From: an uncultured cyanobacterium
GTDB taxonomy: Bacteria > Cyanobacteriota > Cyanobacteriia > Cyanobacteriales > CAWUOF01
Assembly: GCA_963744145.1 (NCBI GenBank)
Contig: CAVUSO010000001.1
Span: 3,456,001 to 3,520,000, forward strand
Length of the DNA: 64,000 bases
Direction: 5' to 3'
The notes under the pieces were generated by a model. The model was not told the DNA's origin. It was given only the letters and a program-made list of their open reading frames with translations, and searched no databases. Of the stretch, positions 7,905 through 39,127 are shown piece by piece (within the stretch, counting starts at the first letter, position 1; each line of letters starts with the position of its first letter). The position numbers and the translations under genes were made by a program.

Positions 7905-7962
7905 ATCATTGGGTTAAGGGCAGAATAAGACTTTACCTGTATATTATATGTAAATCTACTTT

Positions 7963-7985
7963 AAGTCTATCAACTTGCTGTACTT
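7963..7985. promoter_or_regulatory. Imperfect palindrome, candidate operator in the divergent sbp/metH region
   Basis: AAGTCTA-TCAACTTGC-TGTACTT about 60 bp upstream of sbp; regulator unknown. Confidence 0.35.
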
Positions 7986-8105
7986 TATTAAATCTGAATA
8001 AAAACCAGGAAGATAGGCGATCGAGCTATGATCAAGAGTTAAATATCGTTAATCTTGCAAAATAGATTAAATAGTAATAGAGTCGATAATGCCCCATCTG
8101 AGCCT

Positions 8106-11100: not shown

Positions 11101-11696
11101 CAATTTATGGATATTTTCCCTGTCAATCTGAAGGAAATTCTCTCCTTATTTATGATCCGGAAATCGTCAAAAATGGACAAGATATTTCTGGAGTAAATCC
11201 GATCGCTACCTTTAATTTTCCTCGACAAAAGTCCCTGCGACGTTTGTGTATTGCTGATTTCTTTGCACCGAAAAAATCTGGTAAAATTGATGTGTTTCCG
11301 ATGCAAGCTGTGACAGTAGGAAATATAGCGACGGAATATGCACAAGGTCTATTTGCTAATGATCAGTACACTGATTATCTATACTTCCATGGATTAGCTG
11401 TACAAACTGCTGAAGCAATAGCTGAATGGTTGCACGCTCGTATCCGTCGGGAGTTAGGTTTTGCTCAGGAAGAACCGGATCAGATTCGGGATATATTAGC
11501 ACAACGGTATCGTGGTTCGCGTTATAGTTTTGGCTATCCAGCTTGTCCTAATATTGCCGATCAATATCAGCAGTTAGAATTATTAGGATGCGATCGGATT
11601 AATCTATATATGGATGAAAGTGAACAACTTTATCCAGAACAGTCTACTACTGCGATTATTACCTATCACCCAGAAGCCAAATATTTCAGTGCTTAA
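8106..11696 (+). CDS. metH: Cobalamin-dependent methionine synthase
   Basis: [21 protein letters not shown]12-binding [10 protein letters not shown]...L..NG, C-terminal [13 protein letters not shown] at 8106 (MKSPFL) preferred over TTG at 8055. Confidence 0.97.
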
Positions 11697-12061
11697 AGAT
11701 TTTTGACTGATCCGACTGATCATCTCAGTTCAGTTAGAAAAAGCTCAACGGTTATATTGAGCAATTTATGGGACAGATCAGATGTGGGACAGACATCTTG
11801 TCTGTCCTAGTTATTTTTGTCATACCTACAGAAACCGCTTGGGTTGAAGTTGAGACTACATATTTAGTATTTCTTTACAATTAGCCCGATCGCTGATCAA
11901 CCCTAGTTTTTACCCCTGAGAGCAATTCCTCTCTACCTGTTTCGGCACCTCCAAAGATTAAAATTAAGTTAAAATTCAGTAAAATAAGCCATAATGCTTG
12001 TATCTAATTAGTGAAATTTGCGATAGCATAGATTTAAAACAAAAAAAGAAGGAGAAATGAA

Positions 12062-12277
12062 ATGACCAATTACACAATTTCTAACTATGATCGATCTAGC
12101 TACAATACTCTAGCCCAGATATTTACTAACGCAATTCTATCTGGATTTTTAACAACCACAGAACGGCTGCAATTAAAAGACACTCTCTTAGATGATTCAC
12201 TCCTAGATGATGATCTCGCGATCGTCAACCGATTGCTGTATGCTATCCGTCGCAATATGCTGAAATTATCCGCGTAA
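12062..12277 (+). CDS. Small cyanobacterial hypothetical protein, paralog 1
   Basis: 71 aa, AAGGAG RBS, 53/71 identical to the 12773 ORF; NRLLYAIRR tail. Confidence 0.8.
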   Translation: MTNYTISNYDRSSYNTLAQIFTNAILSGFLTTTERLQLKDTLLDDSLLDDDLAIVNRLLYAIRRNMLKLSA

Positions 12278-12772
12278 GGCTTGGACTGTCCGTTCCCGAG
12301 ACATTTGGTTTGGCTATTAATTCGTAATTACGATCGCGATTAATCCGGAAAGAATGCTGTGTACACAGTTTTGAACAACTTGATATTAGACTATCTGAGT
12401 TGATTCTAGTAAATCTTTAAGATCACCTTGAATTTCTCTACCAGATTAAGACTTAGGCACAAGATTCAATAAGTTTTAACCATTTATCAGCAAAGATAGT
12501 GACCTTGAGATCAGTGGCCACAATTTGGGATTGTCCAAAAATTGGCCATTGCTGTTTAATGCTAATTGGTGGACAAAGTTGATTATAAAGTTTACTTAAA
12601 CTTAATGGTACTCGACTAGGTTTTATGGTTGTCGCGATCGCGTTTGATCAGCTTTAATCCCAAAGATTATTAAGATTAAGTAAACTTTAAGGAAAACCGT
12701 ACTAATACTTGTAGCTAATTAGTGAAAGTGATGATAAGATGGAATTAAAGTTAAAAAAGAAGGATAAATGAA

Positions 12773-12988
12773 ATGACTAATTACACAGCCTGTAACTATG
12801 ATCGCTCGATTTATAATACTCTTACCGAGCTATTCAGTGACGCGATTCTATCTGGTTTTTTAACTACAACAGGACGGAAACAATTACAAGAAACGCTACT
12901 TGATGATGAGCTGATTCAAGACGATTTAATCATCGTGAATCGATTACTGTATGCGATCCGTCATAATCTGTTGAAGTTATCCGCTTAA
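12773..12988 (+). CDS. Small cyanobacterial hypothetical protein, paralog 2
   Basis: 71 aa, AAGGA RBS; tandem paralog of the 12062 ORF with a similar upstream region. Confidence 0.8.
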   Translation: MTNYTACNYDRSIYNTLTELFSDAILSGFLTTTGRKQLQETLLDDELIQDDLIIVNRLLYAIRHNLLKLSA

Positions 12989-13629
12989 TCTTTTGCTGGT
13001 AATTATAGTTTGATGCTAGCAATGCCAACGAAGGTAATTCTAACAGAGAAAAGGTAAGCGATCGTCTCCATGTTATGTTCGGAGCGATCGCTAACCAGTA
13101 AATCCATTTATAGCTATACGGGGATATCTTCCCATTTACGCACAGAATGACGGGAAGAGTATAGTTGTTTTAACAAATGATGGACATCCCGATAGGTATC
13201 TGTTTGCTTAATCGCGTTAAGATAGATAATCTGTTGGGCTACCTGGGGAAGTTGAAAACACCAATACAAACTCATTAATGGATTGATCCAAAGCTTGCTT
13301 CCTCGAGTTCTAGGGGTGACATGATAATCTCCGTAATGACCAGCTAATGCGGAAAGAATAGAGCTATTAACAATACTAATATCTTCTGGCATTGTCTGAA
13401 AAACATACTCACTTGCTTGTCGATATTGCTCGACCTCAGACATCTCCTGAAGTAAAGAGAATGTGCCTAGAAATCCACCACTTGTAATTAGTCCTGCGAT
13501 ATTTTCTAGGACATGGGCATGACAAACACCATGATAACGATCAATTCCAAATCCCAGACAAACCAGAAGCTTTTTTTTAACTGAAAGTTCATCAACTACG
13601 GCAATACTGGTAACATCTTCATGTGGTGT

Positions 13630-15102
13630 CAATACGGTTCGGTTAAGCTAAAAATCAGGTAAAATGAAAGTGTCACCTAAATGGAATGAGTAGGAATGCA
13701 GCTCAAAGAATTCACTGTAATATCACCTGTGGTCGAATCAGGGATGATCCTCAAAGCGTTAGAAACAGCGATTCCATCGACAGCAATTGAAAAAGCCATT
13801 GAAGATACCAATAGAAAAGAGGAACGACAAAGAGCATTACCAACGCATCTGGTTATCTGTCTAATCATTGGGATGAGTCTATGGTCTAGGGGGTCAATGA
13901 GGACAGTGTTGAAAAATCTGGTTGATGGCTTAAATGAAGCATGGGTCAGAGTTAGTTATTATTGGCGAATACCATGTAAATCATCAATTACAGAAGCTAG
14001 ACAGCGAGTAGGTGCAGGGGTAATGCGGCATCTGTTTCACATAGTAGTTAGACCACAGGCTACTAGGGAAACCCCAGGGGCTTTTTTAGGTGAAAAGCGA
14101 ATTATGGCTGTAGATGGAACAGTGTTTGATGTGCCAGATAGCGACACAAATGCCAGAGTATTTGGATATCCAGCTAGTCGTCCTGGAACTAGAGCCGCGT
14201 TTCCCAAGGTGCGTTTGGTTCTATTGATTGAAGCAGGAACACATTTAATTGTAGATGCCTTGATCTGCCCTTACCGAATCGGTGAGCGAGTCAGAGTGAA
14301 AAGGTTACTACGGTCAGTCACCACTGGAATGTTATTAATGTGGGATCGTGGATTGCATTCTTATGCAATGGTGCAAGCCACCTTGTCCCAAAAATGTGAT
14401 TATTTGGGACGCATCCCCAAAAATGTTAAATTTCCTGTGGAGCAGGTATTGGATGATGGTTCCTATCTCTCCTGGATTGCTCCCGACGGCAAGTCGAAAA
14501 AACAGGGCATGACCAAAATTATGGTTCGAGTCATTGAATACACTATTGATAATGGCGAAGCACAAACTTACCGTCTGATTACCAGTTTGACGGACATCGC
14601 TTTATTTCCAGCTTTATTATTAGCCACAGAATATCATCGTCGTTGGGAAGTTGAAAATACTATCGATGAATTGAAGGTTCATCAATTGGGACGTAAAACT
14701 CTGATTCGTTCTCTTCATCCCCGTGAAGTGGTTCAGGAAATTTATGGTTGGCTCCTCGGACATTGGGCGGTTCGTTCTCTCATGTTGACCGACGGCCACC
14801 TCTGCTCACATCTCCCCTTTACGATTGAGTTTTACTGGTACTCTCAATGTTGTCCGTCGTGCTATTCCCAAATTTCAGCGCCTTCAACCAGAAGAATTTC
14901 CCCTTTTTTTTAGTTGGTTGATCAGGGAAATTTTGGATGAACCAATTCCCAAACGTGAAGGTAGAAGTAACCCTCGTGTTATTAAAAAAACTCGCGCCAA
15001 ATTTCCATCCAAGAAACCAATTCATAGAGGTCAGGGAGTTAAACATGAAACCCTCAATTTTTCTATCCTCAATACTGCTTAAAGCTTAACCGAACCGTAT
15101 TG
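13630..15102 (+). mobile_element. IS4-family insertion sequence, 1473 bp
   Basis: Perfect 20-bp TIRs CAATACGGTTCGGTTAAGCT (13630-13649; 15083-15102) and 10-bp TSD CATGTGGTGT (13620-13629; 15103-15112). Confidence 0.95.
13696..15082 (+). pseudogene. IS4-family DDE transposase, frameshifted near 14790
   Basis: AVDGT, WDRG, Y..RWEVENTIDELK (YREK) motifs; the C-terminus (ISPLRLSFTGTLNVVRRA...NPRVIK) continues in another frame to 15082. Confidence 0.88.
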
Positions 15103-15724
15103 CATGTGGTGTTCCCAGTCCAATTTCATTACCACACATTAAGCTATCTGTGCCACCATCGATGAGAATAACGGTATCGAGTAATAACGCTTCTACCAAA
15201 GCTTGGTAACTGACTAGCAGTGGCTTAAACCCAGTCCGCTCAAAACAATAAATGGGAGTTTCTTGTCCCTTTTGCCGAAACCAAGTTGCTAGATATTGTT
15301 CAGGAAAGTAACGATTAAAACATGGCGTATCTGCGGTTACTTTTAGGAGATGAGGAGATAGTTTTTCCTGCTGACTAGGAGGAAGAAATGAAAATGATAA
15401 ATTAGCGAGATAGACTGTCTTACCCTGAGATTTCAAACTGAAATACAGCGGTAATCCACAAAAAATGTCAAATCCTCCTCCTGCACCAGCTAACAGGATC
15501 GTTTCTGACTGTTCTAATTCTGTAAACAAGGGCAAATTTTGTAATTGCATATTAATAGTAAGGATTGTCTAGGCTGTGTTAAAATATATATTGACAAGAG
15601 TGCTGTTAATTCGGCTATTGGCGAATAGCTAAACAACTTTTTGATTTTTCACAGGAATTTGGGCGATCGCCTTGTTCAGCACAATCAATTTTCTCGCACA
15701 TAAACTAAATTGAGAATAATTAAT

Positions 15725-15738
15725 GTATCTCAAGATAC
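15725..15738. promoter_or_regulatory. NtcA-binding site upstream of cnfR/patB
   Basis: GTA-TCTCAAGA-TAC within the palindrome TGTATCT-CA-AGATACA, about 130 bp upstream of the ATG at 15870. Confidence 0.75.
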
Positions 15739-15869
15739 AAAAATTTGATCAATATTTTTGAAAAATAAAGAAAATATTAAGTAATGTTTAATTGTTTAGC
15801 GTGAACAAAATAACATCCATCTCTAATTGAGAATACTGCCAATAAGTTATTATGTGATTGGTATCCATC

Positions 15870-17468
15870 ATGTCTTATTCTATCACCAATCGTTGTTTGC
15901 AGTGTGATACTTGTGAACCTCTTTGTCCAACAGGAGCAATCAAGCCAAAAGACGATTCCTATTGGATCGATCCTGATTTATGTGATAACTGTGAAAGTCA
16001 TCCTGTCCCTCAATGTGTAATTTCTTGTCCAGTGAACGCTCCAGTTCCGGTTCAAGCAAAAAAAGGGAGGTATAAAACTGATACAACTCGAACTATTCCG
16101 AGTGCAAATATTTTTACTAATGGTAAAACCAATCCTTTTGCTTCAGCTATAGCGATCTGGGAATTATCTAATATTCTCGTCCAGGGAGAATCTCTATCTT
16201 GGGACATAGAAGATACTGGAGAACTATGCTATCAACGGCAAATTTTAAATGGAAAAGGTAAGATTGTCTATCGAATTACCAATTCTTTAGGAGTTGATCT
16301 ACCTGTAGCACTGCAACATTCCGAAGCATTTTTAGTAATTAAATCCTTTGATATTAAAGCTGCTTGTCTGAATTTAATCTATGCTGCCCAGATTACAGCC
16401 CTGGCGCGTCCTTGGGAACAAGAATTCATGATCAATGATCTGCAAATCGAAGAATACTTAGGATTAGATAAACGTAAAGACTTAAGTAAATCTGCTAAAT
16501 TAGCTTTGATCAAAGAATTAGCCCAACAACCCTGTAGACTAATTGCTAGTATTGATTTGCCATCTCAAGGAAAGATCAAAGGAGTTTCGCTCAAAAATAG
16601 TCCGCTCTGGCACCTATTAGAAATTCAACATCATTTTCAAGAAGATGAGCATGGATGTAAACATTTAGTAGGATTAACTTTCCGGATCAAAGCAGGAGAA
16701 TGGACGAAAATTTTTCTCAATCGACAAGGTTGTAAAGAACGAAATAGCTTTTATCAATATGGCACCCTACCAAAAGCATTATTAAATGCAGTAATGAGTA
16801 TTTGGCAACAACATCCAGGTGCAGCCAGGATGTTACTTTGGTTATTATTTAAAACCAAAATGGGTAAAGAACAGCGCATCACCGTACCCACCTTAATGCG
16901 AGTTGCTTATGGTGAAAAGAAAGTCAATAGTGCATCAGCCCAAAAAGATGAACGTAAACGATTAATAAAAATCTTTGAGAATGATTTAGAAGTGATTAGT
17001 AGCTATGGATTAAACCCAGTATTCGATCCCGTTACTTATCCATTAGAAATTCAACCCCTGTGGGTGAAATTGAGAAATATTCCCGAAGACGCAGAAGCAG
17101 CTTTAGATTTTTGGATTGCTGACGGTAGTAAAAATCATCGCTTGACTGATGTGGCACCTCGTGGTAAGTGGAACCGTCTGATCAATGCAAGAATATTATA
17201 TTTTGAAATTCCTCCTGAATGGGAATCTCCCACAAAAACGAAAGCAACTCAGTCTGAGAAAACTAAAAAGAAAACAAAAGTTAAATCATCCATTGAAATT
17301 TCACCACAACAAATTATTGAGGCTAGAAAAATAAAACTTTTGAGCCAAAGAGAATTAGCATCATTAACCGGAAAAAGCCAAAGTTGGATTAGAGATATTG
17401 AAAATGGTCGTTTCCGACTTAAGGAAGAAGATCAAATGTTATTGCGAAATGTCTTAGGGATGATGTAG
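15870..17468 (+). CDS. cnfR: CnfR/PatB transcriptional activator of nif genes (N-terminal 2x[4Fe-4S] ferredoxin domain, C-terminal XRE-type HTH)
   Basis: CLQCDTCEPLCP and CDNC......QCVISCP at the N-terminus; LSQRELASLTGKSQSWIRDIENGR HTH at the C-terminus; about 530 aa. ATG at 15870 preferred. Confidence 0.88.
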   Translation: MSYSITNRCLQCDTCEPLCPTGAIKPKDDSYWIDPDLCDNCESHPVPQCVISCPVNAPVPVQAKKGRYKTDTTRTIPSANIFTNGKTNPFASAIAIWELSNILVQGESLSWDIEDTGELCYQRQILNGKGKIVYRITNSLGVDLPVALQHSEAFLVIKSFDIKAACLNLIYAAQITALARPWEQEFMINDLQIEEYLGLDKRKDLSKSAKLALIKELAQQPCRLIASIDLPSQGKIKGVSLKNSPLWHLLEIQHHFQEDEHGCKHLVGLTFRIKAGEWTKIFLNRQGCKERNSFYQYGTLPKALLNAVMSIWQQHPGAARMLLWLLFKTKMGKEQRITVPTLMRVAYGEKKVNSASAQKDERKRLIKIFENDLEVISSYGLNPVFDPVTYPLEIQPLWVKLRNIPEDAEAALDFWIADGSKNHRLTDVAPRGKWNRLINARILYFEIPPEWESPTKTKATQSEKTKKKTKVKSSIEISPQQIIEARKIKLLSQRELASLTGKSQSWIRDIENGRFRLKEEDQMLLRNVLGMM

Positions 17469-17523
17469 TTAGCGATCGCTAATTACATTAGCAGGTTTAA
17501 ACCAGTGCGATCGCTGGTAAATC

Positions 17524-18255
17524 TTAAAAATTTGGCAAATTATCAGGATCAATACCCTGAGCTTTTAAATAAGCGATCAACTTTTCTTTTTCCTGATGTT
17601 CCTGTGCAATTTTTTCTACTGCCCAAAGTAATAAGTTCCCCTCGTAATCCCACCATCTTAACCAATATCCATCTCTACCTTCTTTTAGACCTTGCCAAAC
17701 CCCCAAAAACAAGTCTATTCCGGGAATCCAATAACGACCATTTTCATCAGGTTGTTTTGAGATATAACGCCCATTTTCTAGGTCACGATATTCGATGAAA
17801 CCTTTATAAGGGTTAAATGTCACATAAATAGGAATTTTCAATAAACATTCATAAAAAAAATATTTTCCTTGGGGATAGGTCTGTTTACCAGAAAATTTGT
17901 CACCGTTTTTATTTGATAAGAATTCTATTACTATAATAGGAAGTTCTCCGTCTAAATAGGGCGTATAAGCTGGTCTTTCTGCTAATATTTCTTTCACTGA
18001 TGGTACATAAAACCAATCTGGTGCCTTGGCTAGAAATTGACCGTTAATCGTAGCACATAGACCGATATGAGAGCCAATTAATATCTGGGGCTGAATTAAT
18101 CCAGCGATTTCTAGACTTTCACATAATGCTCCAGATAAAAGGGTTTGTGCTGTATTTTCGATGAATTCATTTTCTAATTTAAAATCCTTTGGTAAGGGTT
18201 CCCAGGTCATAATAAATTCTACGAATCTTGAAGTTGGAATTGGTTTGTCTGTCAT
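17524..18255 (-). CDS. Uma2 family endonuclease-like protein
   Basis: KAPDWFYV, P.IVIEFLS, WLRWWD..GNLL, LKAQGIDPD tail; diverged paralog of the next gene. Confidence 0.88.
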   Translation of the reverse strand: MTDKPIPTSRFVEFIMTWEPLPKDFKLENEFIENTAQTLLSGALCESLEIAGLIQPQILIGSHIGLCATINGQFLAKAPDWFYVPSVKEILAERPAYTPYLDGELPIIVIEFLSNKNGDKFSGKQTYPQGKYFFYECLLKIPIYVTFNPYKGFIEYRDLENGRYISKQPDENGRYWIPGIDLFLGVWQGLKEGRDGYWLRWWDYEGNLLLWAVEKIAQEHQEKEKLIAYLKAQGIDPDNLPNF

Positions 18256-18348
18256 AAATATGCTCTGGTTTAATTAAAGTGTAGCGATCGCTAACTTTAT
18301 TCTATTATAAAGAGAACAATTTAAAGAAACTGCGATCGCTGGTAAATC

Positions 18349-19215
18349 TTAAAAATTTGGCAAATTATCAGGATCAATACCCTGAGCTTTTAAATAAGCA
18401 ATCAACCTTTCTTTTTCCTGTCGCTCCTGTTCAGCCCGTTGACGTTCCTGTTCAGCCCGTTGTTGTTCCTGTTCAGCCCGTTGACGTTCCTGTTCGGCCC
18501 GTTGGTACTCTTGTTCAGCCCGTTGTCGTTCTAGTTGAATCCGTTGTCGTTCTAATTCCAGCTTTTCTACTCCCCAGGGTAATAAGTTCCCTTCTTGATC
18601 CCACCATCTTAACCAATATCCAGTTGTTGTGGCTTTTTGACCGCGCCAAGTTCCTAAAAATAATCCCATTTCGGGAATCCAATGACGGCCATTTTCATCG
18701 GGTAGTTTTAATTCGTATCGTTCATGTTCTAGTTGATAATATTCTAATAAACCGCCATCCGGGTCAAAGATCACATAGATGGGCACTTGCAATATTTGTT
18801 CATAAAAAAACCATTTTCCCGGTGGATAGGTCTTTTCCTCGTTATATTCCTCACCGTCTTGGTTTGAGATGAATTCCATCACGATCAAAGGAATATCTCC
18901 TTCTAAATGAGGAGTATAACTGGGACGTTTCATGATGATGTCTTTGACGGAGGGAATGTAGACCCAATCCGGAGCTTTGGCGATAAATTCCCCATTGATC
19001 GTTGCACACAAACCAAAGTTAGAAGCAATTAACATTTGGGGTTGAATGAATCCAGCGATTTCTAAACTTTCCCATAAAGCTCCAGCTAACAGGGGTTGTC
19101 CGGTATTGTCCACTGGTTCATCCTCTAAGTGAAAATTATCAGGTAATGGTTCCCATGCGATCGCCATTCCTGTGGGTAATTTAGTTGGATTGAGTACAGT
19201 TACCATCAATACCAC
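18349..19215 (-). CDS. Uma2 family endonuclease-like protein with RAEQERQ coiled-coil repeats
   Basis: KAPDWVY, IVMEFIS, GKWFFYEQIL, WLRWWD; 21-bp tandem repeats at about 18416-18552. Confidence 0.92.
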   Translation of the reverse strand: MVLMVTVLNPTKLPTGMAIAWEPLPDNFHLEDEPVDNTGQPLLAGALWESLEIAGFIQPQMLIASNFGLCATINGEFIAKAPDWVYIPSVKDIIMKRPSYTPHLEGDIPLIVMEFISNQDGEEYNEEKTYPPGKWFFYEQILQVPIYVIFDPDGGLLEYYQLEHERYELKLPDENGRHWIPEMGLFLGTWRGQKATTTGYWLRWWDQEGNLLPWGVEKLELERQRIQLERQRAEQEYQRAEQERQRAEQEQQRAEQERQRAEQERQEKERLIAYLKAQGIDPDNLPNF

Positions 19216-19328
19216 CTTGAGTTTATTTGTTAACTAATTATAACCCAATTAATTTGCTAAAAAAATTGAGTCGCCAAAGAGCAAAGTAAAGAAGTGTAAA
19301 GAGCTATCATAGCTATTATAGCCAAGGG

Positions 19329-19475
19329 CTAAGAAGTCCATCCAACCGAGCAGACAACCCGAAAGCCGATGACGATGACGAGGTTGCTGTCATCCGGCCA
19401 ATAATAGAAGCGATACGCAGAACGACAATCCTGCGGGTTATTGCCCCACGACCCACCGCGCCCCAGTCGCCTGTA
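19329..19475 (-). other. Candidate DGR variable region plus IMH-like tail
   Basis: GC-rich 3' end of an AT-rich gene; codons GGC AAT AAC...TTC TAT TAT...GAC AGC AAC CTC GTC ATC GTC keep C/T at position 3, as expected from mutated AAC/AAT codons. Confidence 0.65.
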
Positions 19476-21041
19476 AGAATTATTCTCATTATCATTTTGC
19501 TCTTCATTGATCCGGGCACTTCCATCATTAGGTGCCCCTTCATAATTATAGTGCCAATGGTCTAGACACAATTCCCAGACGTTCCCGTGCATATCATATA
19601 AGCCAAATCTATTTGCTGCCTTAAAACTTCCTACTGAGCTTGTTTCTTTTCGATAAATCCCTGTTGAACCAAAACCATAGATATAATTACCATCATAGTT
19701 AGCTAAATCTGTCGTGATTGTTTCCCCAAAATGAAATGGTGTAGTCGTTCCCGCTCGACAAGCATATTCCCATTCTGCTTCACTTGGTAATCTATATTCT
19801 CTTCCTGTCTTCCTTGACAACCGATCGCAAAATTCTACTGCTTCATTCCAGGTAACCCTTTCTACTGGGCGATCGCTTCCTTTAAATCTAGATGGATCTA
19901 ACTTAAGCTCTCGATTAACTTGAGGTAAACTTGCTATCTCCTTCCACTGTGCTTGGGTTATAGGATATTTACCCATAAAAAATGGTTTAACTGATACTTC
20001 ATGTAAAGGACTTTCATTGTATTCATGTCCTTCTTCATCTTCTGGTGAACCCATCATAAAGACACCTTCAGGAATATAAACCATTTCTAGATGAACATTA
20101 TTTCCTAAGTCTTCCCTATAACCTCTAGCTTGGTCTAAATAACGTTCAATTTTATAGGATTCACTAGATGGATCAAATTTTATTTCTGCAACTTCAAATT
20201 CAAAAGATTGTAGGTCAATAGTTGAATCTATACCCTGACTTTCAACACCAACAGCTACTTCTTCTTGAAAAGTTTGGGAAGTCTGAATACCTTCATCCTC
20301 AAAAATAGTACCCGGAAATTCTCTCAAATTCTCTGGCAAAACTTCATCTGATAATTTTAGTTCTAGATTACCTACCGGATAGGAGCGGGTTAAATCACTC
20401 GGATCTACTTCTTCTGATCTTTTCAATAATCTTTGCACCAATTGAGCAAATTCTAATAAACTAGGTTCCCCTTGCAATTGAGGTGATAAATCTTTAGTAA
20501 TTTGTGCTAACCGTTCAAATTCTACCCTAATTTCTGATTCCGTCAGTTGAGCATTAGCTTCTAGGAAACGTCTTGCTATTTCTTCAGCAACTTGGTTACA
20601 GTAATCATCCCCTAAAAATACCATTGCTGCCCAACGTTGTACTTCTAATTCTTTTTCCCTTCTCCCTGGATTAATCCTACTCAAATAATTAACATAGCTA
20701 ATTAAATCCTGGGCAACTTCTCTCATGCGTTTTGGGCCATAATGTTCCTTCATTTCTTGAATCAGATAGGATCTGATATGAGTGTCCATTGCATATAATT
20801 CATAACCTACTTGACTACATAATTCTGATAGCAATAAATCTACTTCTGCTACCCAAGGAACATTGTCACTTTTTAAAAATTGATTACGCAAATAGTTAAC
20901 TAATTCCGGTGTCAATACTAAAGGTAGTGCTGCATGATATGCTAACAATAGATAGGAGGGCTGAAAACGTCCTACAAATCGGTTAACTGTTGCAACTGCG
21001 GTTTCTTGCTCCCATTCTGCTAAATCTATTTCTTGTGTCAT
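19329..21041 (-). CDS. FGE-sulfatase (SUMF1 / C-type-lectin fold) protein with N-terminal domain typical of MoxR-vWA system partners; probable DGR target
   Basis: FMMGSPE, KYPITQAQW, RLPSEAEWEYACRAGT, FGLYDMHGNVWE, RGGSW..GFRVV; N-terminal LAYHAALPLVLTPELVNYLR...EVDLLLS.LC..VGYELY.MD..IR. Confidence 0.9.
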   Translation of the reverse strand: MTQEIDLAEWEQETAVATVNRFVGRFQPSYLLLAYHAALPLVLTPELVNYLRNQFLKSDNVPWVAEVDLLLSELCSQVGYELYAMDTHIRSYLIQEMKEHYGPKRMREVAQDLISYVNYLSRINPGRREKELEVQRWAAMVFLGDDYCNQVAEEIARRFLEANAQLTESEIRVEFERLAQITKDLSPQLQGEPSLLEFAQLVQRLLKRSEEVDPSDLTRSYPVGNLELKLSDEVLPENLREFPGTIFEDEGIQTSQTFQEEVAVGVESQGIDSTIDLQSFEFEVAEIKFDPSSESYKIERYLDQARGYREDLGNNVHLEMVYIPEGVFMMGSPEDEEGHEYNESPLHEVSVKPFFMGKYPITQAQWKEIASLPQVNRELKLDPSRFKGSDRPVERVTWNEAVEFCDRLSRKTGREYRLPSEAEWEYACRAGTTTPFHFGETITTDLANYDGNYIYGFGSTGIYRKETSSVGSFKAANRFGLYDMHGNVWELCLDHWHYNYEGAPNDGSARINEEQNDNENNSYRRLGRGGSWGNNPQDCRSAYRFYYWPDDSNLVIVIGFRVVCSVGWTS

Positions 21042-21700: not shown

Positions 21701-21907
21701 AGTTGAGAAAGTTTTGATAGTGTTTTTTTGAGTAAGAGTTGTAACCTTTTTGAGTTAGCTCTTTTTCTTCATGTTTACAGAATAGCTATTTAAAACTTGT
21801 TCTAATAGTCTCTAAAGTAATGAGTTAACAGATGATAAAAGTTATAGTTATATCAATTTCATTTATTCTAGCTACAGTTCAATCCCCCCTAACCCCCCTT
21901 AAAAAGG

Positions 21908-23335
21908 CTACGGTGTACACACAACCATACCTAGAGCGAGTTTCCAGCCATCAAAAAAGGATTGAAATTGGCTTAGTCCGCGCACTAAAGTAGTAATTCC
22001 TGGCGGTTTTTGAGACCGATAGCCAGACCAACCACCCAGTCGAGCAATAATCCAAGTTGCCCAAGGTAAAGAATGAGGTGGATAAGGATTTTGTTGTGCT
22101 AAAGTTGGTCCGGAAACAGTGGGAGCAATCTGGGATAAACATTGCTGTTGTTCATCATTGAATGCGTAGGTTGCAGGTAATTCAGGCTGGTCACGCCCGA
22201 CAATTAACTGCAAAATTCTGACAGCTACCGATAAAGCTAAAACACACAATTTTTGAATAGATTTAATTGACTCTAATTGAGTTGCTTCGAGATCTAAGCC
22301 AACGGATTTGAGGGTAGCAAACAGTTGTTCAATCCGCCAGCGCCATTTGTACCATTCAATTACTTGTAATGCTTGTTCAATACAAACTACTCTATGTGTA
22401 GTGAGTAATCGCCAGTGAATCGGTTGTTGACCTTTTGGTGGATTGACTTCTACAGCTTCCACTGCGTAAAGATTGACACTTTCTGGATAATCTGCGGCAG
22501 ATAAATGCTCAGGACGCTGAATTTGAACGAGGGCACAACGTACTAACATGAATGCTTCTCTCGCTGTTCGTCCAACCCGTGAGTCAGCCTGGACTTCAAT
22601 GGCATAAGTTCCTTCACAATGTTGCTGACTTAAATAGGTATACAGAGACTCAGACTGCTCTTTGAGCCGACGGTTCTGTCCGACTCTAATTAAGAGATGA
22701 TGCTGTTGATTAGGTACTCTGACAAATTCTTCAAATATATCGCTTTCCCGATCGCCTATATGAGTCACCATTTTCACATTAGACCAGCTGAAACAGGTGC
22801 GGGTTTGAGCGGCTGACTTGAGCCATTTATAGGATTCTTTTTCTTCAATCGGTAAGTTTTTATATTTTCTTTCATGCTGATCCTGATGGTCAGGTTCTCT
22901 TGTCCACAATTGCACTGTACTTAATCCAAGTGGGAATCCATTTTCTGCATCTAATACCAGTGTGGGATGAATATAAAATCCGATATCTTGATTGTTTCCT
23001 ACTACTCCAATTCCCTCGGATTTCAATCTCCCTTTGTGAGACTCTAAGTTAATTTCACTACTATCACTTATCGCTAAGACGTGGTGTTTTCCATCTACCT
23101 GTAAGGCGCAATGCTCTCCTAAACTTACGACTAATTCTCCAGTTTTTACATTCTCATTCCCTAAAAATCGGTAATATCCAACTTGCTCGGCTCGATTTTT
23201 ACTGATTTTCCGAATATTTACTGATTGATGTTGTGCCATTGCTGCATACAATGAAGCCCCTCTTTTTCCCAGTCTTGGATCTCCGAATGCTGTTCTCTCA
23301 CATTGTTGCACATGAATTAAAATTGGATTTTCCAC
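21908..23335 (-). CDS. IS50/Tn5-like DDE transposase, apparently intact
   Basis: FGDPRL, EEKESYKWL, GDRESDIFE, WRLLTT, Y..RW.IEQLF..LK, IARLGGW...PG motifs. Confidence 0.93.
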   Translation of the reverse strand: MENPILIHVQQCERTAFGDPRLGKRGASLYAAMAQHQSVNIRKISKNRAEQVGYYRFLGNENVKTGELVVSLGEHCALQVDGKHHVLAISDSSEINLESHKGRLKSEGIGVVGNNQDIGFYIHPTLVLDAENGFPLGLSTVQLWTREPDHQDQHERKYKNLPIEEKESYKWLKSAAQTRTCFSWSNVKMVTHIGDRESDIFEEFVRVPNQQHHLLIRVGQNRRLKEQSESLYTYLSQQHCEGTYAIEVQADSRVGRTAREAFMLVRCALVQIQRPEHLSAADYPESVNLYAVEAVEVNPPKGQQPIHWRLLTTHRVVCIEQALQVIEWYKWRWRIEQLFATLKSVGLDLEATQLESIKSIQKLCVLALSVAVRILQLIVGRDQPELPATYAFNDEQQQCLSQIAPTVSGPTLAQQNPYPPHSLPWATWIIARLGGWSGYRSQKPPGITTLVRGLSQFQSFFDGWKLALGMVVCTP

Positions 23336-23397
23336 TACTTTTTTCTCCTTACTTCCCTTCTCTCCTTACTCTATCTCAACTTGTGTGTACACCGTAG
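21908..23397 (-). mobile_element. IS4-family (IS50/Tn5-like) insertion sequence, 1490 bp
   Basis: 17-bp TIRs CTACGGTGTACACACAA (21908-21924; 23381-23397) and 10-bp TSD CTTAAAAAGG (21898-21907; 23398-23407). An 18-bp TIR with 8-bp TSD is an equivalent reading. Confidence 0.93.
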
Positions 23398-23695
23398 CTT
23401 AAAAAGGGGGGAACCGGATTAATATTTCTTAAAGTCCCCCTTTTTAAGGGGGATTTAGGGGGATTCTGGATCTGTAGCAGTGCTTGGTGAGTCTGGTATT
23501 ATTTATCTCAATCTCTGTGATTAAATCTAGAGCATGATTGAATTCCAACAAAAAACCCCACCATTATGGTGAGGTATTTAATCAGGGTGCATGAGATTGA
23601 GTTAAAAAACCTAAGAGAAAAAGAGTTACTGCAAGTTGATTCTAGCCGTCTAATTGATGTTCGCGCATAATATTGTGATGTGCTTGTGAATAATA

Positions 23696-23950
23696 TTAGT
23701 AGCGGTTAGCTGCTTGACGTTGTGCTTCTATTCTGCGTTGTTCTGCTTGACGTTGTGCTTCTATTCTGCGTTGTTCTGCTTGACGTTGTGCTTCTATTCT
23801 GCGTTGTTCTGCTTGGCGTTCTGCTTGAATGCGTTGTTGAGTATAACTATTATTATTTGGATAGTAGCTATCGGCACGAGCGGGAATTGCAATTCCACCT
23901 AACATTAAACTAACGATTCCGACTAAAGCTAAAGATTTGTTGAGACGCAT
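23696..23950 (-). CDS. Small secreted protein with 11-aa tandem repeats
   Basis: Signal peptide ending PARA; three exact 33-bp repeats (QAEQRRIEAQR); AAGGAAG RBS. Confidence 0.75.
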   Translation of the reverse strand: MRLNKSLALVGIVSLMLGGIAIPARADSYYPNNNSYTQQRIQAERQAEQRRIEAQRQAEQRRIEAQRQAEQRRIEAQRQAANRY

Positions 23951-24412: not shown

Positions 24413-24832
24413 ATGTCTGACAACGATCAAAACTCCATTGGGTTAGCTGAATTCATTCAACAGGTTAAACAGGATCTTCTAACCGTAGCACCTGGTAAAG
24501 ATAAGGATGTTCCCATTTTGTTTGTTGAGTCTGTAGAATTAGAGTTACAAGTTACAGCGAAACGGACTGGTAAAGTGGGTACTAAGGGAAGTGTCAAGAT
24601 TAATGTCTTAGGAACTGGAGGTGAGTTTGGTGGTGAAGTTGGTGGTGATATCAGTAATGATCGAGTTCATAAGGTAACCGTGAAATTATCTCCCCTATTC
24701 GATCAATCTCGTTTACAAGAATTTTATGAGACCTTACATTCTGATCAGATTCCTACAGCTATTCGGAATAGTTTAACTGCATTATTCAAAGGTAATGAAG
24801 AAGGGAACTTAATCGAAGAACTGGGTGAGTAA
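24413..24832 (+). CDS. Trypco2-like (trypsin co-occurring) domain protein
   Basis: IGLAEFIQQVKQDL...LFVESVELELQVT...G.VKINVLG.G.E.GG...HKVTVKLSP pattern. Confidence 0.75.
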   Translation: MSDNDQNSIGLAEFIQQVKQDLLTVAPGKDKDVPILFVESVELELQVTAKRTGKVGTKGSVKINVLGTGGEFGGEVGGDISNDRVHKVTVKLSPLFDQSRLQEFYETLHSDQIPTAIRNSLTALFKGNEEGNLIEELGE

Positions 24833-24855
24833 TTTTCTAGCAAAAGAGGTAATCA

Positions 24856-26313
24856 ATGGAAACCTTGAAATTAATGTTCTATCCCATAGAAAATAGTCAA
24901 GACCGTTTTAAAGTAATTGCGGAAGGAGCAGCTCATCAAGAACCATTGTTACCTTTTCCAGAAAATGAGATCAATCCCCGCTCCACTCTAGTCAGAATCT
25001 TAGACTCAATCAAGTTTAATCGCAACAATTTTTCGGAAGCAGAAATAGCTTGGATGGTGAGGGAAAAACTCAGCAATAATGATGCTTTTCTCCCAGACTA
25101 TTTACAGCAAATTGGGAGTAAACTTTATGCAACATTAGGTCAAAATATCCAGCAAATAGTGGAAACTAAAATAGCTGTGACTAAACGCGATCGCAATTGG
25201 TTACATATTCAGTTAGAATTTCCAGTAGATGATCATAAATATGTCCATTTAACTGATTATCCTTGGGAATTATTCTGTAATAATTATGGATTTCTCGCTC
25301 ATCAAGGTGTAGCTTTTTCCCGTTATCTTGCTTATCCTCGTCTTTGTCCAAATTTACCTAGTCATGATCGTGTTGAGGTTTTATTGATTTCTGCTAAAGT
25401 TGGTGATCAAAGGATGGGATTTCCACCCTTATCTAGTTCAGAACAAGAAGCGATCGCATTAGGATTACAAAATGCTCAAGAATCAATTCAATTGAAAACT
25501 TTAGCTAATCCAACTTTTCTAGCACTACGTCAGCATTTATTAGCAAATCCACTTCCCCAAGTTTTGCACTTTGATTGTCATGGTTTTTTTGGAAAACGCT
25601 GTCATCAACAGGAATGTAGAACAGCTCACAAACAAAAGGCAAATCAGTGTGAAAAATGTGGTACTCTTTTAGGAGAACCTCAAGGTTATTTGTTACTAGA
25701 GAATAGTCATGGAGCTGCTGATTATATAAGTGCTAAGGAAATCGGAGAGTTAGTAGGTAATCAACCCATTGGATTAGTAGTGTTAAGTAGTTGTCGTAGT
25801 GGAATGTCCCGATTGAGTGAGTCGGTCTTTAATGGAGTAGCACAAAATTTAATTGGTCAAGGGATTCCCGCAGTAGTAGCAATGACATATACTATTGAAG
25901 TATCTGCTGCTCAAGCTTTTGTGGAGACTTTTTATCGATCACTAGGAAAAAAAGATCCACTTGCGATCGCTTTACGTCATGGACAAAGTGCAATGGGGAT
26001 TGAAGGAAATCAGTGGTATCGTCCGATTTTATATCTGAGATGGGAGGATAATCAAGGGGGACAGTTATTTAATTTACCTATAGCTGAACCAGTTAGAGAT
26101 AGAATTGCATCCGATCGGAGTAAATTATCAAATATGAATCAATCAGCAAGTCGAAAACTTGATCTTGAAGAAGAACTGACAGATTTGTTAGAAGAAAAAG
26201 AAGCTTGTAAAAATCAAATTCGTTCCACTATAGATGATGCTCAAAAGACAGTATTGAAAAGGAAACTGGACAAATTAAATCGACAAATAGCTGAACTAGA
26301 AAGCCAATTATAA
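24856..26313 (+). CDS. CHAT (caspase-like) protease with Zn-ribbon insert and C-terminal effector-associated (EAD9-like) coiled coil
   Basis: YPWELF, VLHFDCHG (catalytic His), VVLSSCRS (catalytic Cys), GIPAVVAM, FYRSL, WYRPILY. Confidence 0.88.
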   Translation: METLKLMFYPIENSQDRFKVIAEGAAHQEPLLPFPENEINPRSTLVRILDSIKFNRNNFSEAEIAWMVREKLSNNDAFLPDYLQQIGSKLYATLGQNIQQIVETKIAVTKRDRNWLHIQLEFPVDDHKYVHLTDYPWELFCNNYGFLAHQGVAFSRYLAYPRLCPNLPSHDRVEVLLISAKVGDQRMGFPPLSSSEQEAIALGLQNAQESIQLKTLANPTFLALRQHLLANPLPQVLHFDCHGFFGKRCHQQECRTAHKQKANQCEKCGTLLGEPQGYLLLENSHGAADYISAKEIGELVGNQPIGLVVLSSCRSGMSRLSESVFNGVAQNLIGQGIPAVVAMTYTIEVSAAQAFVETFYRSLGKKDPLAIALRHGQSAMGIEGNQWYRPILYLRWEDNQGGQLFNLPIAEPVRDRIASDRSKLSNMNQSASRKLDLEEELTDLLEEKEACKNQIRSTIDDAQKTVLKRKLDKLNRQIAELESQL

Positions 26314-26339
26314 TTTTTAACCTGGGAAATTTGAGAGAT

Positions 26340-27344
26340 ATGGTAATTAACACTAACAATAAATACCTAGAATTAACATTGACAGATTTATTAGAGGAGG
26401 AAACTCAACTTTTAGCAAAAAAAGACACTTGTAAAAATCAAATTCGTGGCACTATTGATGATGCTCAGAAAATGGTTTTATCAAGAAATCTAGATAATTT
26501 GAATAAACAAATAGGAGAAATCCAAAAGCAAATAGAGGAAGTAAATAGTCAGCTTCACAAAAATGATATTAGCGGGGATGTTAATCGTCGTTTTCTTGCT
26601 TTAGAAGAAAAATTACCTAAAATTGACTTTAAAGAACCACTAAAGATAGTGCAAAATATTTTGAAGGACTTCGATGAATATGGAGCAGCTTTTTTTCTGG
26701 TTAATGATAGCTTAAGTATGGCTGGAGATTTATTTATTTTAGAGCTTAAAGATTTACTCAAACGTGAAACCACCGATTTAAAACATTATGAAATAGAATT
26801 TTCAGTAAGCGATCGGTTAGATGAGATTGGATTCTTGCAAGGAATAGCTAATTATTTAGGAATGGGACAAATAGAAACTCAAGCAAATGATGTCAATGTG
26901 ATTGACAAGATTATTGATTCTTTAGAAAATGGTACTATAGTTTTTGTGGAAACTAGAAAAGTTGATTTAATTAATGATAAAGGAGGGTTTTTATCTTGGC
27001 TCATTGAGGTTTTTTGGAAAAAAGTAGTTGAACAAATACCTTTAGTTTGTAAAGCAAAAGATATTGAACAAGTCAGATTTATTAATATTATCTTATCAGA
27101 TTGTGACCTAGAAGAAGAATGTTCAATCTTACCTTTTTTCTGTGAGGAAAATGACTTTGATATGTGTAAAGCTGTAAAAATTACTCTTCCAGACTGGAGC
27201 GAGCAAGAAATTAAAACTTGGTTAATCAAACATTCAGGATTATCTAAAGATAAAATCGAGCCAATGAGTAAGAGTATTTATAAATCAAGTCGTGGAGGTA
27301 TTCCTAAATTGATTTGTGAAGCTCTAAAAAATAAATTAAAGTAG
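26340..27344 (+). CDS. Inactive STAND (iSTAND)-like protein with N-terminal EAD9-like adaptor
   Basis: N-terminus repeats the CHAT tail; then LPKIDF, FW..., LPDWSEQEIKTWL, S.GGIP.LI with no Walker A; lies upstream of MoxR. ATG at 26340 (TTG at 26331 possible). Confidence 0.7.
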   Translation: MVINTNNKYLELTLTDLLEEETQLLAKKDTCKNQIRGTIDDAQKMVLSRNLDNLNKQIGEIQKQIEEVNSQLHKNDISGDVNRRFLALEEKLPKIDFKEPLKIVQNILKDFDEYGAAFFLVNDSLSMAGDLFILELKDLLKRETTDLKHYEIEFSVSDRLDEIGFLQGIANYLGMGQIETQANDVNVIDKIIDSLENGTIVFVETRKVDLINDKGGFLSWLIEVFWKKVVEQIPLVCKAKDIEQVRFINIILSDCDLEEECSILPFFCEENDFDMCKAVKITLPDWSEQEIKTWLIKHSGLSKDKIEPMSKSIYKSSRGGIPKLICEALKNKLK

Positions 27345-27415
27345 TTTTTTTGAGAATATATGAATATCAGATTTATATAATTACTTGAGAAAGTGATAAC
27401 TTACCTGATATAATC

Positions 27416-27705
27416 CAATCCAGTTCAGTTAACCGTAGGGGCAAAGCATTTCGGCGAATAAATCATTACTGAAGCGAAGGATAATATTACCGAAATGCTT
27501 TGCCCTCAATCTATGCAGCCAACCGATCAACTATATATTAAAATACATTCAGTTACCATCATTTTTTGGGAGAACTCGGCGCAGAAAAAAGAAGGGCGAA
27601 GCATTCGGATATAATATTGCTGCCCTTCGGCTACGCTCAGGGTAAACTTTGATTGCTAAATTGTCGCCCGAATGCTTCGCCCCTACATTTAACTGAACTG
27701 TATTG
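27416..27705. mobile_element. MITE (290 bp) with IS4-like ends carrying two REP-like hairpin pairs
   Basis: Ends CAATCCAGTTCAGTTAA / TTAACTGAACTGTATTG; flanks TGATATAATC / TGATATGAGC (8/10); internal GGGCAAAGCATTTCGG...CCGAAATGCTTTGCCC and GGGCGAAGCATTCGG...CCGAATGCTTCGCCC. Confidence 0.7.
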
Positions 27706-27744
27706 TGATATGAGCTATTCAAGATTACTAGAGGAAAATCATTT

Positions 27745-28722
27745 ATGTCCACTCCGGAAAGATTAGAATTTACGGGAAATCTAGAAAAACGACCCAAAGA
27801 ACCACATCGGGATTCTCCTAGTACACCAGAACCCTATATAGTTGATCCAGAACTTCAGAAAGCTGTAAATTTAGCTATCTATCTCCGTAGACCTTTACTA
27901 TTAGAAGGAGATCCAGGATGTGGTAAAACTCGTCTTGCTTCAGCAGTTGCTTATGAATTGGGACTTCCTCTCTATCGGTGGGATGTGCGATCGACTACTA
28001 AAGCTCAAGATGGACTTTATGAATATGATGCAATTCTCCGTTTACATGATGTTCAAATTCAGAAAATACCATCTGTTGATAAAATAGAAATTGAAGAAGA
28101 TGGTGAAATAGTTAATCGCAATCCCGCTAATCCTAAACATTATCGTCGATTCGGACCGTTAGGAAAAGCTTTTCGACTCCAGGATTGTCCAGGGATTGTT
28201 TTAATTGATGAAATTGATAAAGCTGATTTAGATTTCCCTAATGATTTGTTAACCGTTTTAGATGCTCCTTGGGAATTCAAAATTAAAGAAACAGGAGAAT
28301 TAATTAAAGCTACTACTACTCCAATTGATTGTAGACCGATTGTTTTTATTACCAGTAATAAGGAAAAAGGGAATTTGCCGATCGCCTTTCTCCGACGTTG
28401 TTTATATTATTATGTAGAATTTCCCAATGATTTGGAAAAGTTACAGGAAATAGTTGAAAAACATTATGAAATTGCTGAAATATCACCTCCACCAAATAAT
28501 TTAGTTGTTACTGCGATTAACCGCTTTTTAAATATCTGGAATGAAGGTGGACTATTTAAAAGACCTGGAACCAGTGAATTTCTGGATTGGTTAAAAGCAC
28601 TCCATACCTTTGAACCAAATCCTTATGATGCAGAACAATTAATAGCAGAACAATTACTTCCCTATCGAGAATTATTATTTAAGATCCAAGCAGATTGGAA
28701 AAAATATGCCAAGGTTTTATGA
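27745..28722 (+). CDS. MoxR family AAA+ ATPase
   Basis: RPLLLEGDPGCGKT (Walker A), GLYEYDAI.RL.D, VLIDEIDKAD.DFPNDLL (Walker B), AFLRRC, KRPGTSEFLDW. Confidence 0.93.
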   Translation: MSTPERLEFTGNLEKRPKEPHRDSPSTPEPYIVDPELQKAVNLAIYLRRPLLLEGDPGCGKTRLASAVAYELGLPLYRWDVRSTTKAQDGLYEYDAILRLHDVQIQKIPSVDKIEIEEDGEIVNRNPANPKHYRRFGPLGKAFRLQDCPGIVLIDEIDKADLDFPNDLLTVLDAPWEFKIKETGELIKATTTPIDCRPIVFITSNKEKGNLPIAFLRRCLYYYVEFPNDLEKLQEIVEKHYEIAEISPPPNNLVVTAINRFLNIWNEGGLFKRPGTSEFLDWLKALHTFEPNPYDAEQLIAEQLLPYRELLFKIQADWKKYAKVL

Positions 28723-38134: not shown

Positions 38135-38431
38135 GGTTATTGGATTAAAAAGGGATTTACATATTATAGCAATCTATAAGTATATCAGTTTTTTTTAAAT
38201 TTATACTAAGCTGTTGTGTATTTAGATTGAGATGATTCAATATAGGGCCACACATAGAGAAATGATCCAGAGAGTTACAGGAGTGAAGGCGATCGCCCCC
38301 CAAGACATCCAAATATTGGCTACAAGACACAAGTGCAGGGTTAAATGCGATCGCTCCCACTAAACAGCGAACTCTACCAAAATTACCCGTCATTGGGCTG
38401 TCAAGAGAATTTTGCAATGTTTCTATAATGT

Positions 38432-38855: not shown

Positions 38856-39127
38856 GCCAAGTAACAGGGTTGGCGATCGCAATGTTAAGATTATTAACAT
38901 CCCTAAGCTAACCCTTCGCAAGATTTGGGAATATTTGACTAAGTTGGTAAGAATTAGAAGGTTTTGGCTGATCGACCGGGACTGCTGTTTAAGTGGATGC
39001 TAGGTGATTTATTGGTGGCTACTTTGGATAGGATGGTGAGGGATAGAGATGCAGCGATCGCGTTTTTGGGTTTACGTTATCCGCGATCGCGATCGAAAAC
39101 AAAACCCACCTACGCGGGTTGAAATTT

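Follow-up and report, generated by a model that had tools for sequence, protein, structure and literature searches.

Does the GC-rich end of a cyanobacterial gene with no retroelement beside it bear the mark of a diversity-generating retroelement (DGR), and which system would a protein with such an end serve? The question arises from a 64,000-nucleotide stretch of contig CAVUSO010000001.1 of an uncultured cyanobacterium (the window), in which a gene on the minus strand encodes a 570-aa protein whose C-terminal domain is of the formylglycine-generating enzyme (FGE)-sulfatase/C-type-lectin (CLec) type. An original prediction had described the end of this gene as the hypermutated part of a probable remote DGR target and its product as a sensor diversified in trans. 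Of that prediction, the sequence observation is confirmed and the interpretation is supported in part. The last ~48 codons carry the composition and codon usage of a DGR-type variable region (VR), and it is likely that a DGR wrote them. We likewise hold it to be probable that the protein senses the ligand for an iSTAND-type MoxR-vWA ternary conflict system and bears a DGR-written VR at its C-terminus. The gene and its VR are located as follows.

19329 to 21041, minus strand: target gene, an open reading frame (ORF) of 570 aa
19332 to 19475, minus strand: DGR-type VR, the last ~48 codons, consisting of a scaffold and 18-19 hypervariable codons

Composition and codon usage of the variable region

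The VR lies at the 3' end of the ORF, inside the CLec/FGE fold, and its scaffold reads L-G-RGGSW..P..CRSA.R....P........IGFRVVC. The ORF is intact and of full length and ends in ...RRLGRGGSWGNNPQDCRSAYRFYYWPDDSNLVIVIGFRVVCSVGWTS*, in agreement with the C-terminal reading proposed earlier. Codons 520-569 have a GC content of 0.547, a GC content at third codon positions (GC3) of 0.62 and an adenine fraction of 0.167, against 0.371, 0.225 and 0.347, respectively, for codons 1-519, which bears out the claim that the last codons are GC-rich and unlike the rest of the gene. The background GC3, taken from 12,115 codons of 32 window genes, is 0.283. The 144 nt at 19332-19475 are depleted in adenine and, at a GC content of 0.569, are the most GC-rich in the whole 64 kb: 16 of 63,857 segments of the same size reach this value, and every one of them overlaps the VR. 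The compositional boundary, at ~19475, is sharp.

The hypervariable columns were set by an alignment of 80 proteins of the family, independently of the target sequence, so that the variable codons were not picked after the fact. At these columns, 16 of the 18 codons of the target end in a pyrimidine (NNY; background 0.522, binomial p 0.0012) and 11 of the 18 end in C (NNC; background 0.144, p 6.7e-6). All seven codons with more than two synonymous choices are C-ending (GGC, AGC, CTC, GTC, ATC, GTC and ATC), for which the product of the genome frequencies is 1.8e-6; outside the VR, C-ending codons account for 16 of the 169 G, L, V, I and S codons of the same gene. This fingerprint is a direct reading of the DNA. 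The GC-rich tail that had looked invariant is also present (GGCTTTCGGGTTGTCTGC...TAGCCC).

The protein family displays the corresponding restriction. Lysine, glutamate, glutamine, methionine and tryptophan cannot be obtained from AAC or AAT (AAY) through changes of adenines. Among the 80 aligned relatives, these five residues make up 3.2% of the 15 hypervariable VR columns versus 27.1% of 75 other hypervariable columns, which directly places the hypervariability of the family among the residues reachable from AAY. Orthologues that are 63% identical to the target overall are unrelated to it at the variable columns.

Calibration on plasmid-borne cassettes

A tblastn search with the CLec domain matched 74 plasmid records. 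Two of these, from Nostoc sp. UHCC 0926 (pn2; L011) and Fischerella sp. NIES-4106 (plasmid3; L012), contain a cassette that is complete. The Nostoc order is Trypco1, trypsin-VMAP, MoxR-like ATPase, long CLec, short CLec, Avd, reverse transcriptase (RT) and template repeat (TR); the Fischerella order is long CLec, short CLec, Avd-like, RT and TR, with upstream genes annotated only as hypothetical. The TR directly follows the RT, and that of Nostoc is annotated as a 92-aa 'hypothetical protein'. A DGR RT was found on six cyanobacterial plasmids among 18 RT-positive records.

Four cognate TR/VR pairs show 85-88% identity, with 13/15, 13/16, 14/16 and 17/21 of the mismatches (81-88%) at TR adenines. 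The window VR and the TR, VR1 and VR2 of the Nostoc plasmid can be aligned codon by codon, down to the TAGCCC at the stop, an ending that the VRs on Nostoc, Fischerella and Anabaena plasmids have as well. Over the last 141 nt, ten plasmid VRs, four of them with their own TR, span a GC content of 0.546-0.61, an adenine fraction of 0.113-0.17 and a GC3 of 0.55-0.70. The window VR falls inside these ranges (0.574, 0.142 and 0.64), and a control FGE gene without the VR scaffold, from a Planktothrix plasmid, shows no jump (0.376, 0.262 and 0.21). In position, fold, scaffold, AAY-derived codons and compositional jump, the segment thus matches bona fide cyanobacterial VRs, as expected of a DGR-type VR in an FGE/CLec domain.

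Domain organization and fold of the target protein

The 570-aa protein is laid out as follows.

N-terminal, ~240 aa: helical domain
aa 245-272: disordered linker
following the linker: beta extension
aa 319-563: FGE-sulfatase/C-type-lectin domain

Pfam assigns aa 319-563 to the FGE-sulfatase domain (E 1e-48), in line with the earlier naming of the protein. For aa 1-314, no Pfam family was found at E ≤ 1 beyond noise. Candidate look-alikes of the N-terminal domain, brought up by an atlas comparison, were unnamed cyanobacterial clusters at 0.80-0.87, under the meaningful level, and were set aside. PADLOC holds no model that matches the sensor protein.

An AlphaFold2 model, built on the 80-sequence alignment, has a mean pLDDT of 81.9. 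In a fold search, the predicted structure matches PvdO (5hha; E 1.7e-18, TM 0.78 on the target), TvpA (2y3c; E 3.6e-13, TM 0.69 on the target), a solved DGR variable protein, and also formylglycine-generating enzymes; as far as the model goes, the fold is a direct result. At the sequence level, PvdO is the best match in the PDB (1.8e-35), and the match to TvpA (1.3e-15) extends over the VR-bearing C-terminus of the target. The alignment with human FGE breaks off at query residue 187 of 256, leaving the C-terminal segment unaligned. The NCBIfam equivalogs all score far under their cut-offs (PvdO 149.9 of 500 bits, GldK 97.1 of 350, EgtB 60.6 of 360). Because of these scores and the short human FGE alignment, the target is not a catalytic member of the FGE, PvdO or EgtB families.

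The orthologues at 63% identity, the nearest relatives among the best 120 of 8000 scored proteins, align with the target from end to end. All named relatives among the matches listed in this whole-protein search are cyanobacteria. The window itself holds 72 copies of the HIP1 palindrome versus 0.22 expected, and five of eight window proteins looked up in the protein database are singleton clusters.

Link to a conflict-system operon

Upstream of the target gene, on the opposite strand, lies a group of five genes, preceded by an insertion sequence (IS).

21881 to 23465, minus strand: IS element between sensor gene and operon, with a transposase at 21908-23335 (Tnp_DNA_bind and DDE_Tnp_1)
24413 to 24832, plus strand: Trypco2-domain protein, first gene of the operon (PF19631, E 1.2e-16)
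24856 to 26313, plus strand: CHAT caspase-like peptidase with N-terminal TCAD3 and C-terminal EAD9, the predicted effector (CHAT 2.6e-27, TCAD3 5e-09, EAD9 7.1e-07)
26331 to 27344, plus strand: iSTAND (inactive STAND NTPase) component (PF19995, 3.3e-09)
27745 to 28722, plus strand: MoxR-like AAA+ ATPase (Pfam AAA_5/AAA_2/AAA)
28695 to 29783, plus strand: CoxE-type vWA protein of 362 aa (VWA_CoxE, 6.8e-08)

The MoxR and vWA ORFs overlap by 28 nt. The region 24413-29783 is a complete iSTAND-type MoxR-vWA ternary conflict system, in which MoxR, a CoxE-type vWA protein and iSTAND are encoded together.

Two relatives tie the target to this system. The first, a 929-aa fusion protein (P0081), is 47% identical over its aa 1-355 to the whole vWA protein of the window and 54% identical over its aa 387-928 to aa 11-569 of the target. 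In the second, plasmid pANACY.03 of Anabaena cylindrica, the genes for CHAT, an iSTAND-like protein, MoxR, vWA and X-CLec are contiguous and co-directional, with identities to the window proteins of 26% (CHAT, E 4e-25), 26% (iSTAND, E 8e-29), 60% (MoxR), 45% (vWA) and 50% (X-CLec); the MoxR counterpart is annotated as a MoxR family ATPase. In the window, the vWA protein ends without an FGS domain. The sensor gene, which is on the opposite strand, lies 7.6 kb upstream of the vWA gene, and the IS and two small genes separate it from the operon. Since the FGS domain, fused in P0081 and adjacent in A. cylindrica, is here on a separate, displaced gene, the relation between sensor and system is one of homology and not of architecture. 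The genetic link to the conflict system is nonetheless a direct observation in these relatives, and the sensor role assigned by the original prediction fits it.

The IS is bounded by inverted repeats (21894-21924 with 23381-23411 and 21881-21907 with 23439-23465). Between the IS and the operon, 23696-23950 (minus strand) encodes a small protein of 84 aa whose N-terminus is hydrophobic and whose gene contains perfect tandem repeats of 33 nt (QRQAEQRRIEA, three to four times). On the A. cylindrica plasmid (L013), an ISL3 transposase gene (11510-12733) cuts an Avd pseudogene (11214-12895), which lies beside a short CLec gene, into two parts. This is a DGR cassette in decay.

Proposed mechanism

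In a DGR-diversified sensor of this kind, an RT would copy an AAC/AAT-rich TR and place random bases opposite the template adenines. The mutagenized cDNA would then replace the last ~140 nt of the target gene, randomizing 18-19 surface codons and keeping the scaffold (RGGSW, P, CRSA.R, P, GFRVVC). If a DGR did write this copy, the variable surface would be expected to bind an invader-derived ligand, and the binding signal may be relayed through the vWA, MoxR and iSTAND components to the CHAT peptidase.

Search for the retroelement and its template

The claim that the window is devoid of RT, Avd and TR was upheld by Pfam, tblastn and blastn. None of the 45 window ORFs of at least 150 aa has an RVT_1 or bAvd domain. 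With two RT and three Avd proteins of the plasmid cassettes as tblastn queries, no RT or Avd remnant was found in the window (best E 0.80), and the same queries recovered Avd in two control loci. Short-word blastn detected no second VR copy in the window, the best other match being 24 nt at 87.5% identity (E 0.13), and no TR, as the two reference TRs match the VR itself only.

Beyond the window, the VR had no blastn match, and thus no TR, in 72,556 PLSDB plasmids. A verbatim 19-mer from the invariant tail, a stretch that is identical between the TR and the VRs in the aligned reference cassette, was scanned against contigs of one genome per species. It hit nine loci, none from this genome and eight of them chance matches in unrelated bacteria; the scan did not return the window's own copy, and its negative is informative only if the collection includes this genome and masks the window. 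Among the 120 best of 8000 proteins scored in the whole-protein search, the query was the sole one from its contig. Searches with the VR alone for a sibling or a TR-containing ORF, covering lengths up to 998 aa, passed three candidates of 313-998 aa and one under 313 aa, none of them on the same contig; with so few candidates, these are weak negatives. The retroelement itself was not found in the window or in these indirect searches, and any current rewriting is hypothetical.

The ninth 19-mer locus (L005) belongs to a metagenome-assembled genome of an uncultured cyanobacterium and encodes another, unrelated CLec VR, with no TR within 10 kb. At L005 4545-13900, compared with window 6840-21041, MetH (81% identical) and an SBP_bac_11 gene stand beside a kinase-CLec gene. 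The two loci may be in loose synteny, with a different N-terminal domain on the CLec protein.

The 3' flank of the variable region

The VRs of the reference plasmids are followed by a common non-coding flank of ~90 nt, of which the window has a candidate counterpart.

19245 to 19328, minus strand: diverged VR 3' flank element (visual alignment and nhmmer)
L011 10766 to 10880: plasmid flank copy
L011 11782 to 11880: plasmid flank copy
L012, L013 and L014: further plasmid flank copies

The plasmid flank consists of TAGCCC, ~55 pyrimidine-rich nt, a short hairpin or AGCG repeats, and a T-run. It follows VRs on Nostoc, Fischerella, Anabaena and Aulosira plasmids and, more loosely, in Microcystis; by blastn it occurs at eight places in five plasmid records, each directly after the end of an FGE/CLec gene. 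A profile of nine plasmid flanks has a sole nhmmer match in the window, at 19306-19251 on the minus strand (E 0.012), directly after the stop of the target gene. The window flank is without the 5' hairpin arm that is present after Nostoc VR2, and it folds into only two AT-rich hairpins of 5 bp, where the Nostoc reference forms a GC hairpin of 6 bp (z -3.7). A clear hairpin is also missing after some bona fide plasmid VRs.

DGR targets have a GC-rich 3' end, the initiation of mutagenic homing (IMH) site, followed by an inverted repeat (hairpin or cruciform) downstream of the VR (Guo et al. 2011, PMC3240598), and homing in phage BPP-1 needs a hairpin within 24 bp after the VR (PMC3240598). No description of the ~90-nt plasmid flank was found in the parts of the DGR literature cited here. 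The cyanobacterial flank may be a homing element or merely a shared 3' untranslated region or terminator. That it is a portable 'landing pad' which marks DGR targets, such that the sensor, apart from its operon, is still rewritten in trans by a distant DGR, seems to us improbable; if true, the protein would be a free-standing hypervariable receptor that serves a conflict system from a distance. The conserved flank of the plasmid VRs is a possible target-recognition element.

Directly downstream of the VR, 17524-19215 (minus strand) encodes two tandem Uma2-family (putative restriction endonuclease-like) paralogues; in the second, six tandem repeats of 21 nt (18398-18565) encode a coiled coil of the QERQRAEQE type.

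Weighing the explanations

Several results count against a DGR-written sensor of this conflict system. The original prediction had derived all the variable codons it listed, NNC or NNT, from AAC or AAT through adenine changes; this stands for 16 of the 18 codons and fails for CAG (Q537) and TGG (W548), which it had not listed and which cannot be reached from AAY. No cognate TR was seen in the window, on the plasmids or in the indirect searches. When the window VR is compared with the two heterologous TRs (60-65% identity), TR adenines account for 21 of 50 and 17 of 44 mismatches, a lack of adenine bias that is uninformative on the cognate TR. Synonymous sites in the VR scaffold are no better conserved against L005 than those in the CLec body (13/23 versus 58/112), and three plasmid genes likewise give no scaffold synonymous excess. 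The flank match is borderline (E 0.012, with a high bias score), the GC hairpin found after three reference VRs is absent from the window flank, and folding of 19270-19400 was not significant (z -1.53). Lastly, the link between sensor and operon runs through homology of their parts, the sensor not being adjacent to the vWA gene in the window.

A shared TR lineage of L005 and the window VR had also been considered, and was dropped because the VR scaffold shows no synonymous-site excess over the CLec body.

We are mildly inclined to regard the gene as an orphaned (fossil) target, that is, one written by a DGR whose RT, Avd and TR were later lost or diverged, probably through IS-driven rearrangement, so that the VR is now a frozen allele. 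The searches for TR, RT and siblings were all negative, and the locus is rearranged and rich in IS elements, with one between sensor and operon and another splitting a DUF1152 gene (13630-15102). The syntenic A. cylindrica locus has decayed, its Avd split by the ISL3 transposase and its plasmid without RT or TR. The lost flank hairpin and the TGG codon, unreachable from AAY, point the same way, and TR homology is lacking for 98 of the 219 CLec paralogues encoded by 21 cyanobacterial genomes with DGRs (PMC7517822). A fossil sits less well with a GC3 of 0.64 that has not decayed toward the background of 0.28 and with seven of seven informative codons that still end in C, from which any loss of the DGR would have to be recent. 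Moreover, most of the negative searches are weak, the word-based protein searches having passed very few candidates.

More doubtful, in our judgment, is a live remote target, in which the VR is still being diversified in trans by a DGR located on a plasmid or at another site of the 7.6-Mb genome. The fingerprint is as sharp as in VRs with an adjacent TR, the ORF is intact and of full length, and the VR-associated flank is partly kept. There is also cyanobacterial precedent, as 76 of 121 DGR-diversified CLec genes in 21 genomes are remote (Vallota-Eastman et al. 2020, BMC Genomics, PMC7517822), and Kaur et al. report TRs 'elsewhere in the genome' (PMC7159879). Against this stand the 19-mer scan, whose nine loci include none from this genome (valid only if the genome is present and the window masked), and the protein searches, which gave no sibling on the same contig among the 120 matches listed or the three plus one VR-only candidates, although the Nostoc TR is an annotated ORF. 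The 72,556 plasmids hold no TR-like match, and the hairpin arm is missing. In addition, the VRs of A. cylindrica are equally pristine, with an IS-disrupted Avd and no RT or TR on the plasmid; a fingerprint that outlasts the loss of RT and TR from its replicon is therefore no proof of current activity.

A very improbable alternative to in-place writing by an RT is that recombination or gene conversion brought in the GC-rich tail, with a different CLec gene or a foreign cassette as its source. The sharp boundary at ~19475, the 3' flank common to plasmid-borne VRs and the nearby mobile elements would suit an import. Neither the window nor the plasmids nor the protein searches yielded a donor copy, however, and the boundary falls where TR/VR homology begins in the reference cassettes, at L-RGGSW. 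The imported piece would itself be a DGR VR, so that an import alters how the segment arrived but not what it is. Hardly credible, finally, is an ordinary FGE-family enzyme (formylglycine-generating enzyme, PvdO or EgtB) without DGR history whose conserved C-terminal motif merely resembles a VR: the Pfam name, the PvdO match at 1.8e-35 and the occurrence of RGGSW...GFRV as a general superfamily motif speak for it, but the PvdO, EgtB and GldK equivalogs are far under cut-off, the human FGE alignment stops before the C-terminal segment, the anomaly in codons and composition does not extend beyond the last ~48 codons and is absent in the Planktothrix FGE control, and 63%-identical orthologues are unrelated at the variable columns.

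Other features of the window

A DUF1152 gene (minus strand) is present in two pieces, 13114-13632 and 15086-15550; the element that splits it belongs to the IS4 family and has perfect terminal inverted repeats of 20 nt (13630-13649 and 15083-15102). At 15858-17468 (plus strand), a 536-aa protein combines an N-terminal 4Fe-4S dicluster ferredoxin module with a C-terminal, antitoxin-like HTH_3 domain. A D12-class N6-adenine DNA methyltransferase (37166-39769, minus strand; PADLOC orphan/type II MTase, E 6e-94) is encoded near a Cas4-like PD-(D/E)XK nuclease. Another conflict-type protein is a second CHAT peptidase of 1183 aa, fused to a long TPR array (41425-44976, plus strand). Finally, the 436-aa product of 52856-54166 (minus strand) has a weak Toprim domain of the Topo6A/Spo11 type (E 3.4e-05) and matches nothing in NCBIfam or PADLOC.

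Comparison with known systems

The intrinsic fingerprint described here, namely the jump in GC and GC3, the adenine depletion and the C-ending codons at hypervariable columns, spots DGR-type VRs without a template. It persists where the DGR has visibly decayed and is not evidence of current activity. If the VR of the window is still rewritten, a filamentous-type cyanobacterium would possess a receptor with very many binding surfaces (18-19 codons, each with up to ~15 residues), wired to a caspase-like cell-death or defence module. To our knowledge, no one has so far put the idea of a bacterial antigen sensor to a bench test. The idea itself was proposed by Kaur et al. (2020) and Dore et al. 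(2023/2024).

A cyanobacterial protein counts as a remote variable protein (RVP) when its nucleotide sequence is at least 50% identical to that of a TR or a DGR variable protein of the same genome (PMC7517822). Like the target, RVPs have a CLec/FGE domain at the C-terminus, a VR that forms the 3' end of the gene, and a different N-terminal domain grafted on. Their genes, too, lie far from any RT, with transposases in the neighbourhood. Unlike them, the window sensor has no paralogue on the same contig among the matches listed.

Among the effector domains of iSTAND ternary systems, FGS is the most frequent (~22%), with TRs nearby or in other parts of the genome (Kaur, Burroughs, Iyer and Aravind 2020, eLife, PMC7159879). 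The window has the same components, namely a MoxR AAA+ ATPase, a CoxE-type vWA protein, iSTAND, CHAT with EAD and TCAD, and Trypco2, and in relatives an FGS/CLec domain with a hypervariable C-terminus is tied to the vWA component. It departs from these systems in that the FGS domain is on a separate gene, displaced to the opposite strand behind an IS, with no DGR nearby. For cyanobacterial DGRs of clade 5E, an association with MoxR and vWA has been described together with the proposal of a hypervariable antigen sensor (Dore et al., bioRxiv 10.1101/2023.09.22.558884).

The closest locus, on pANACY.03 of A. cylindrica PCC 7122 (NC_019773.1, 39042-45814), has the same gene set, full-length sensor homology (50%) and two VRs with the full fingerprint, again with no RT or TR on the plasmid. 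It differs in its five contiguous genes and in its second, short CLec gene and Avd pseudogene, whereas the window is without an Avd remnant. The Nostoc pn2 and Fischerella plasmid3 cassettes share with the window the VR scaffold and its length, the AAY codon positions, the TAGCCC end and the pyrimidine-rich 3' flank; their CLec domains are 60-65% identical to that of the window, and in Nostoc a MoxR ATPase lies upstream. In contrast to the window, both have their own Avd, RT and TR, the TRs being only 60-65% identical to the window VR, and the Nostoc cassette is of the VMAP/trypsin type and not of the iSTAND/CHAT type.

TvpA of Treponema denticola (2Y3C) is a solved DGR variable protein of FGE-type CLec fold, at 25% identity. 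TvpA is a surface lipoprotein. The window protein, in contrast, has no evident signal sequence and carries an extra helical N-terminal domain of 240 aa.

The kind of protein is thus already known, from remote CLec targets to FGS/CLec domains with MoxR-vWA and the antigen-sensor view (Vallota-Eastman 2020; Kaur 2020; Dore 2023/2024). The sole unusual feature of the present gene is that the sensor stands apart from both its operon and any DGR.

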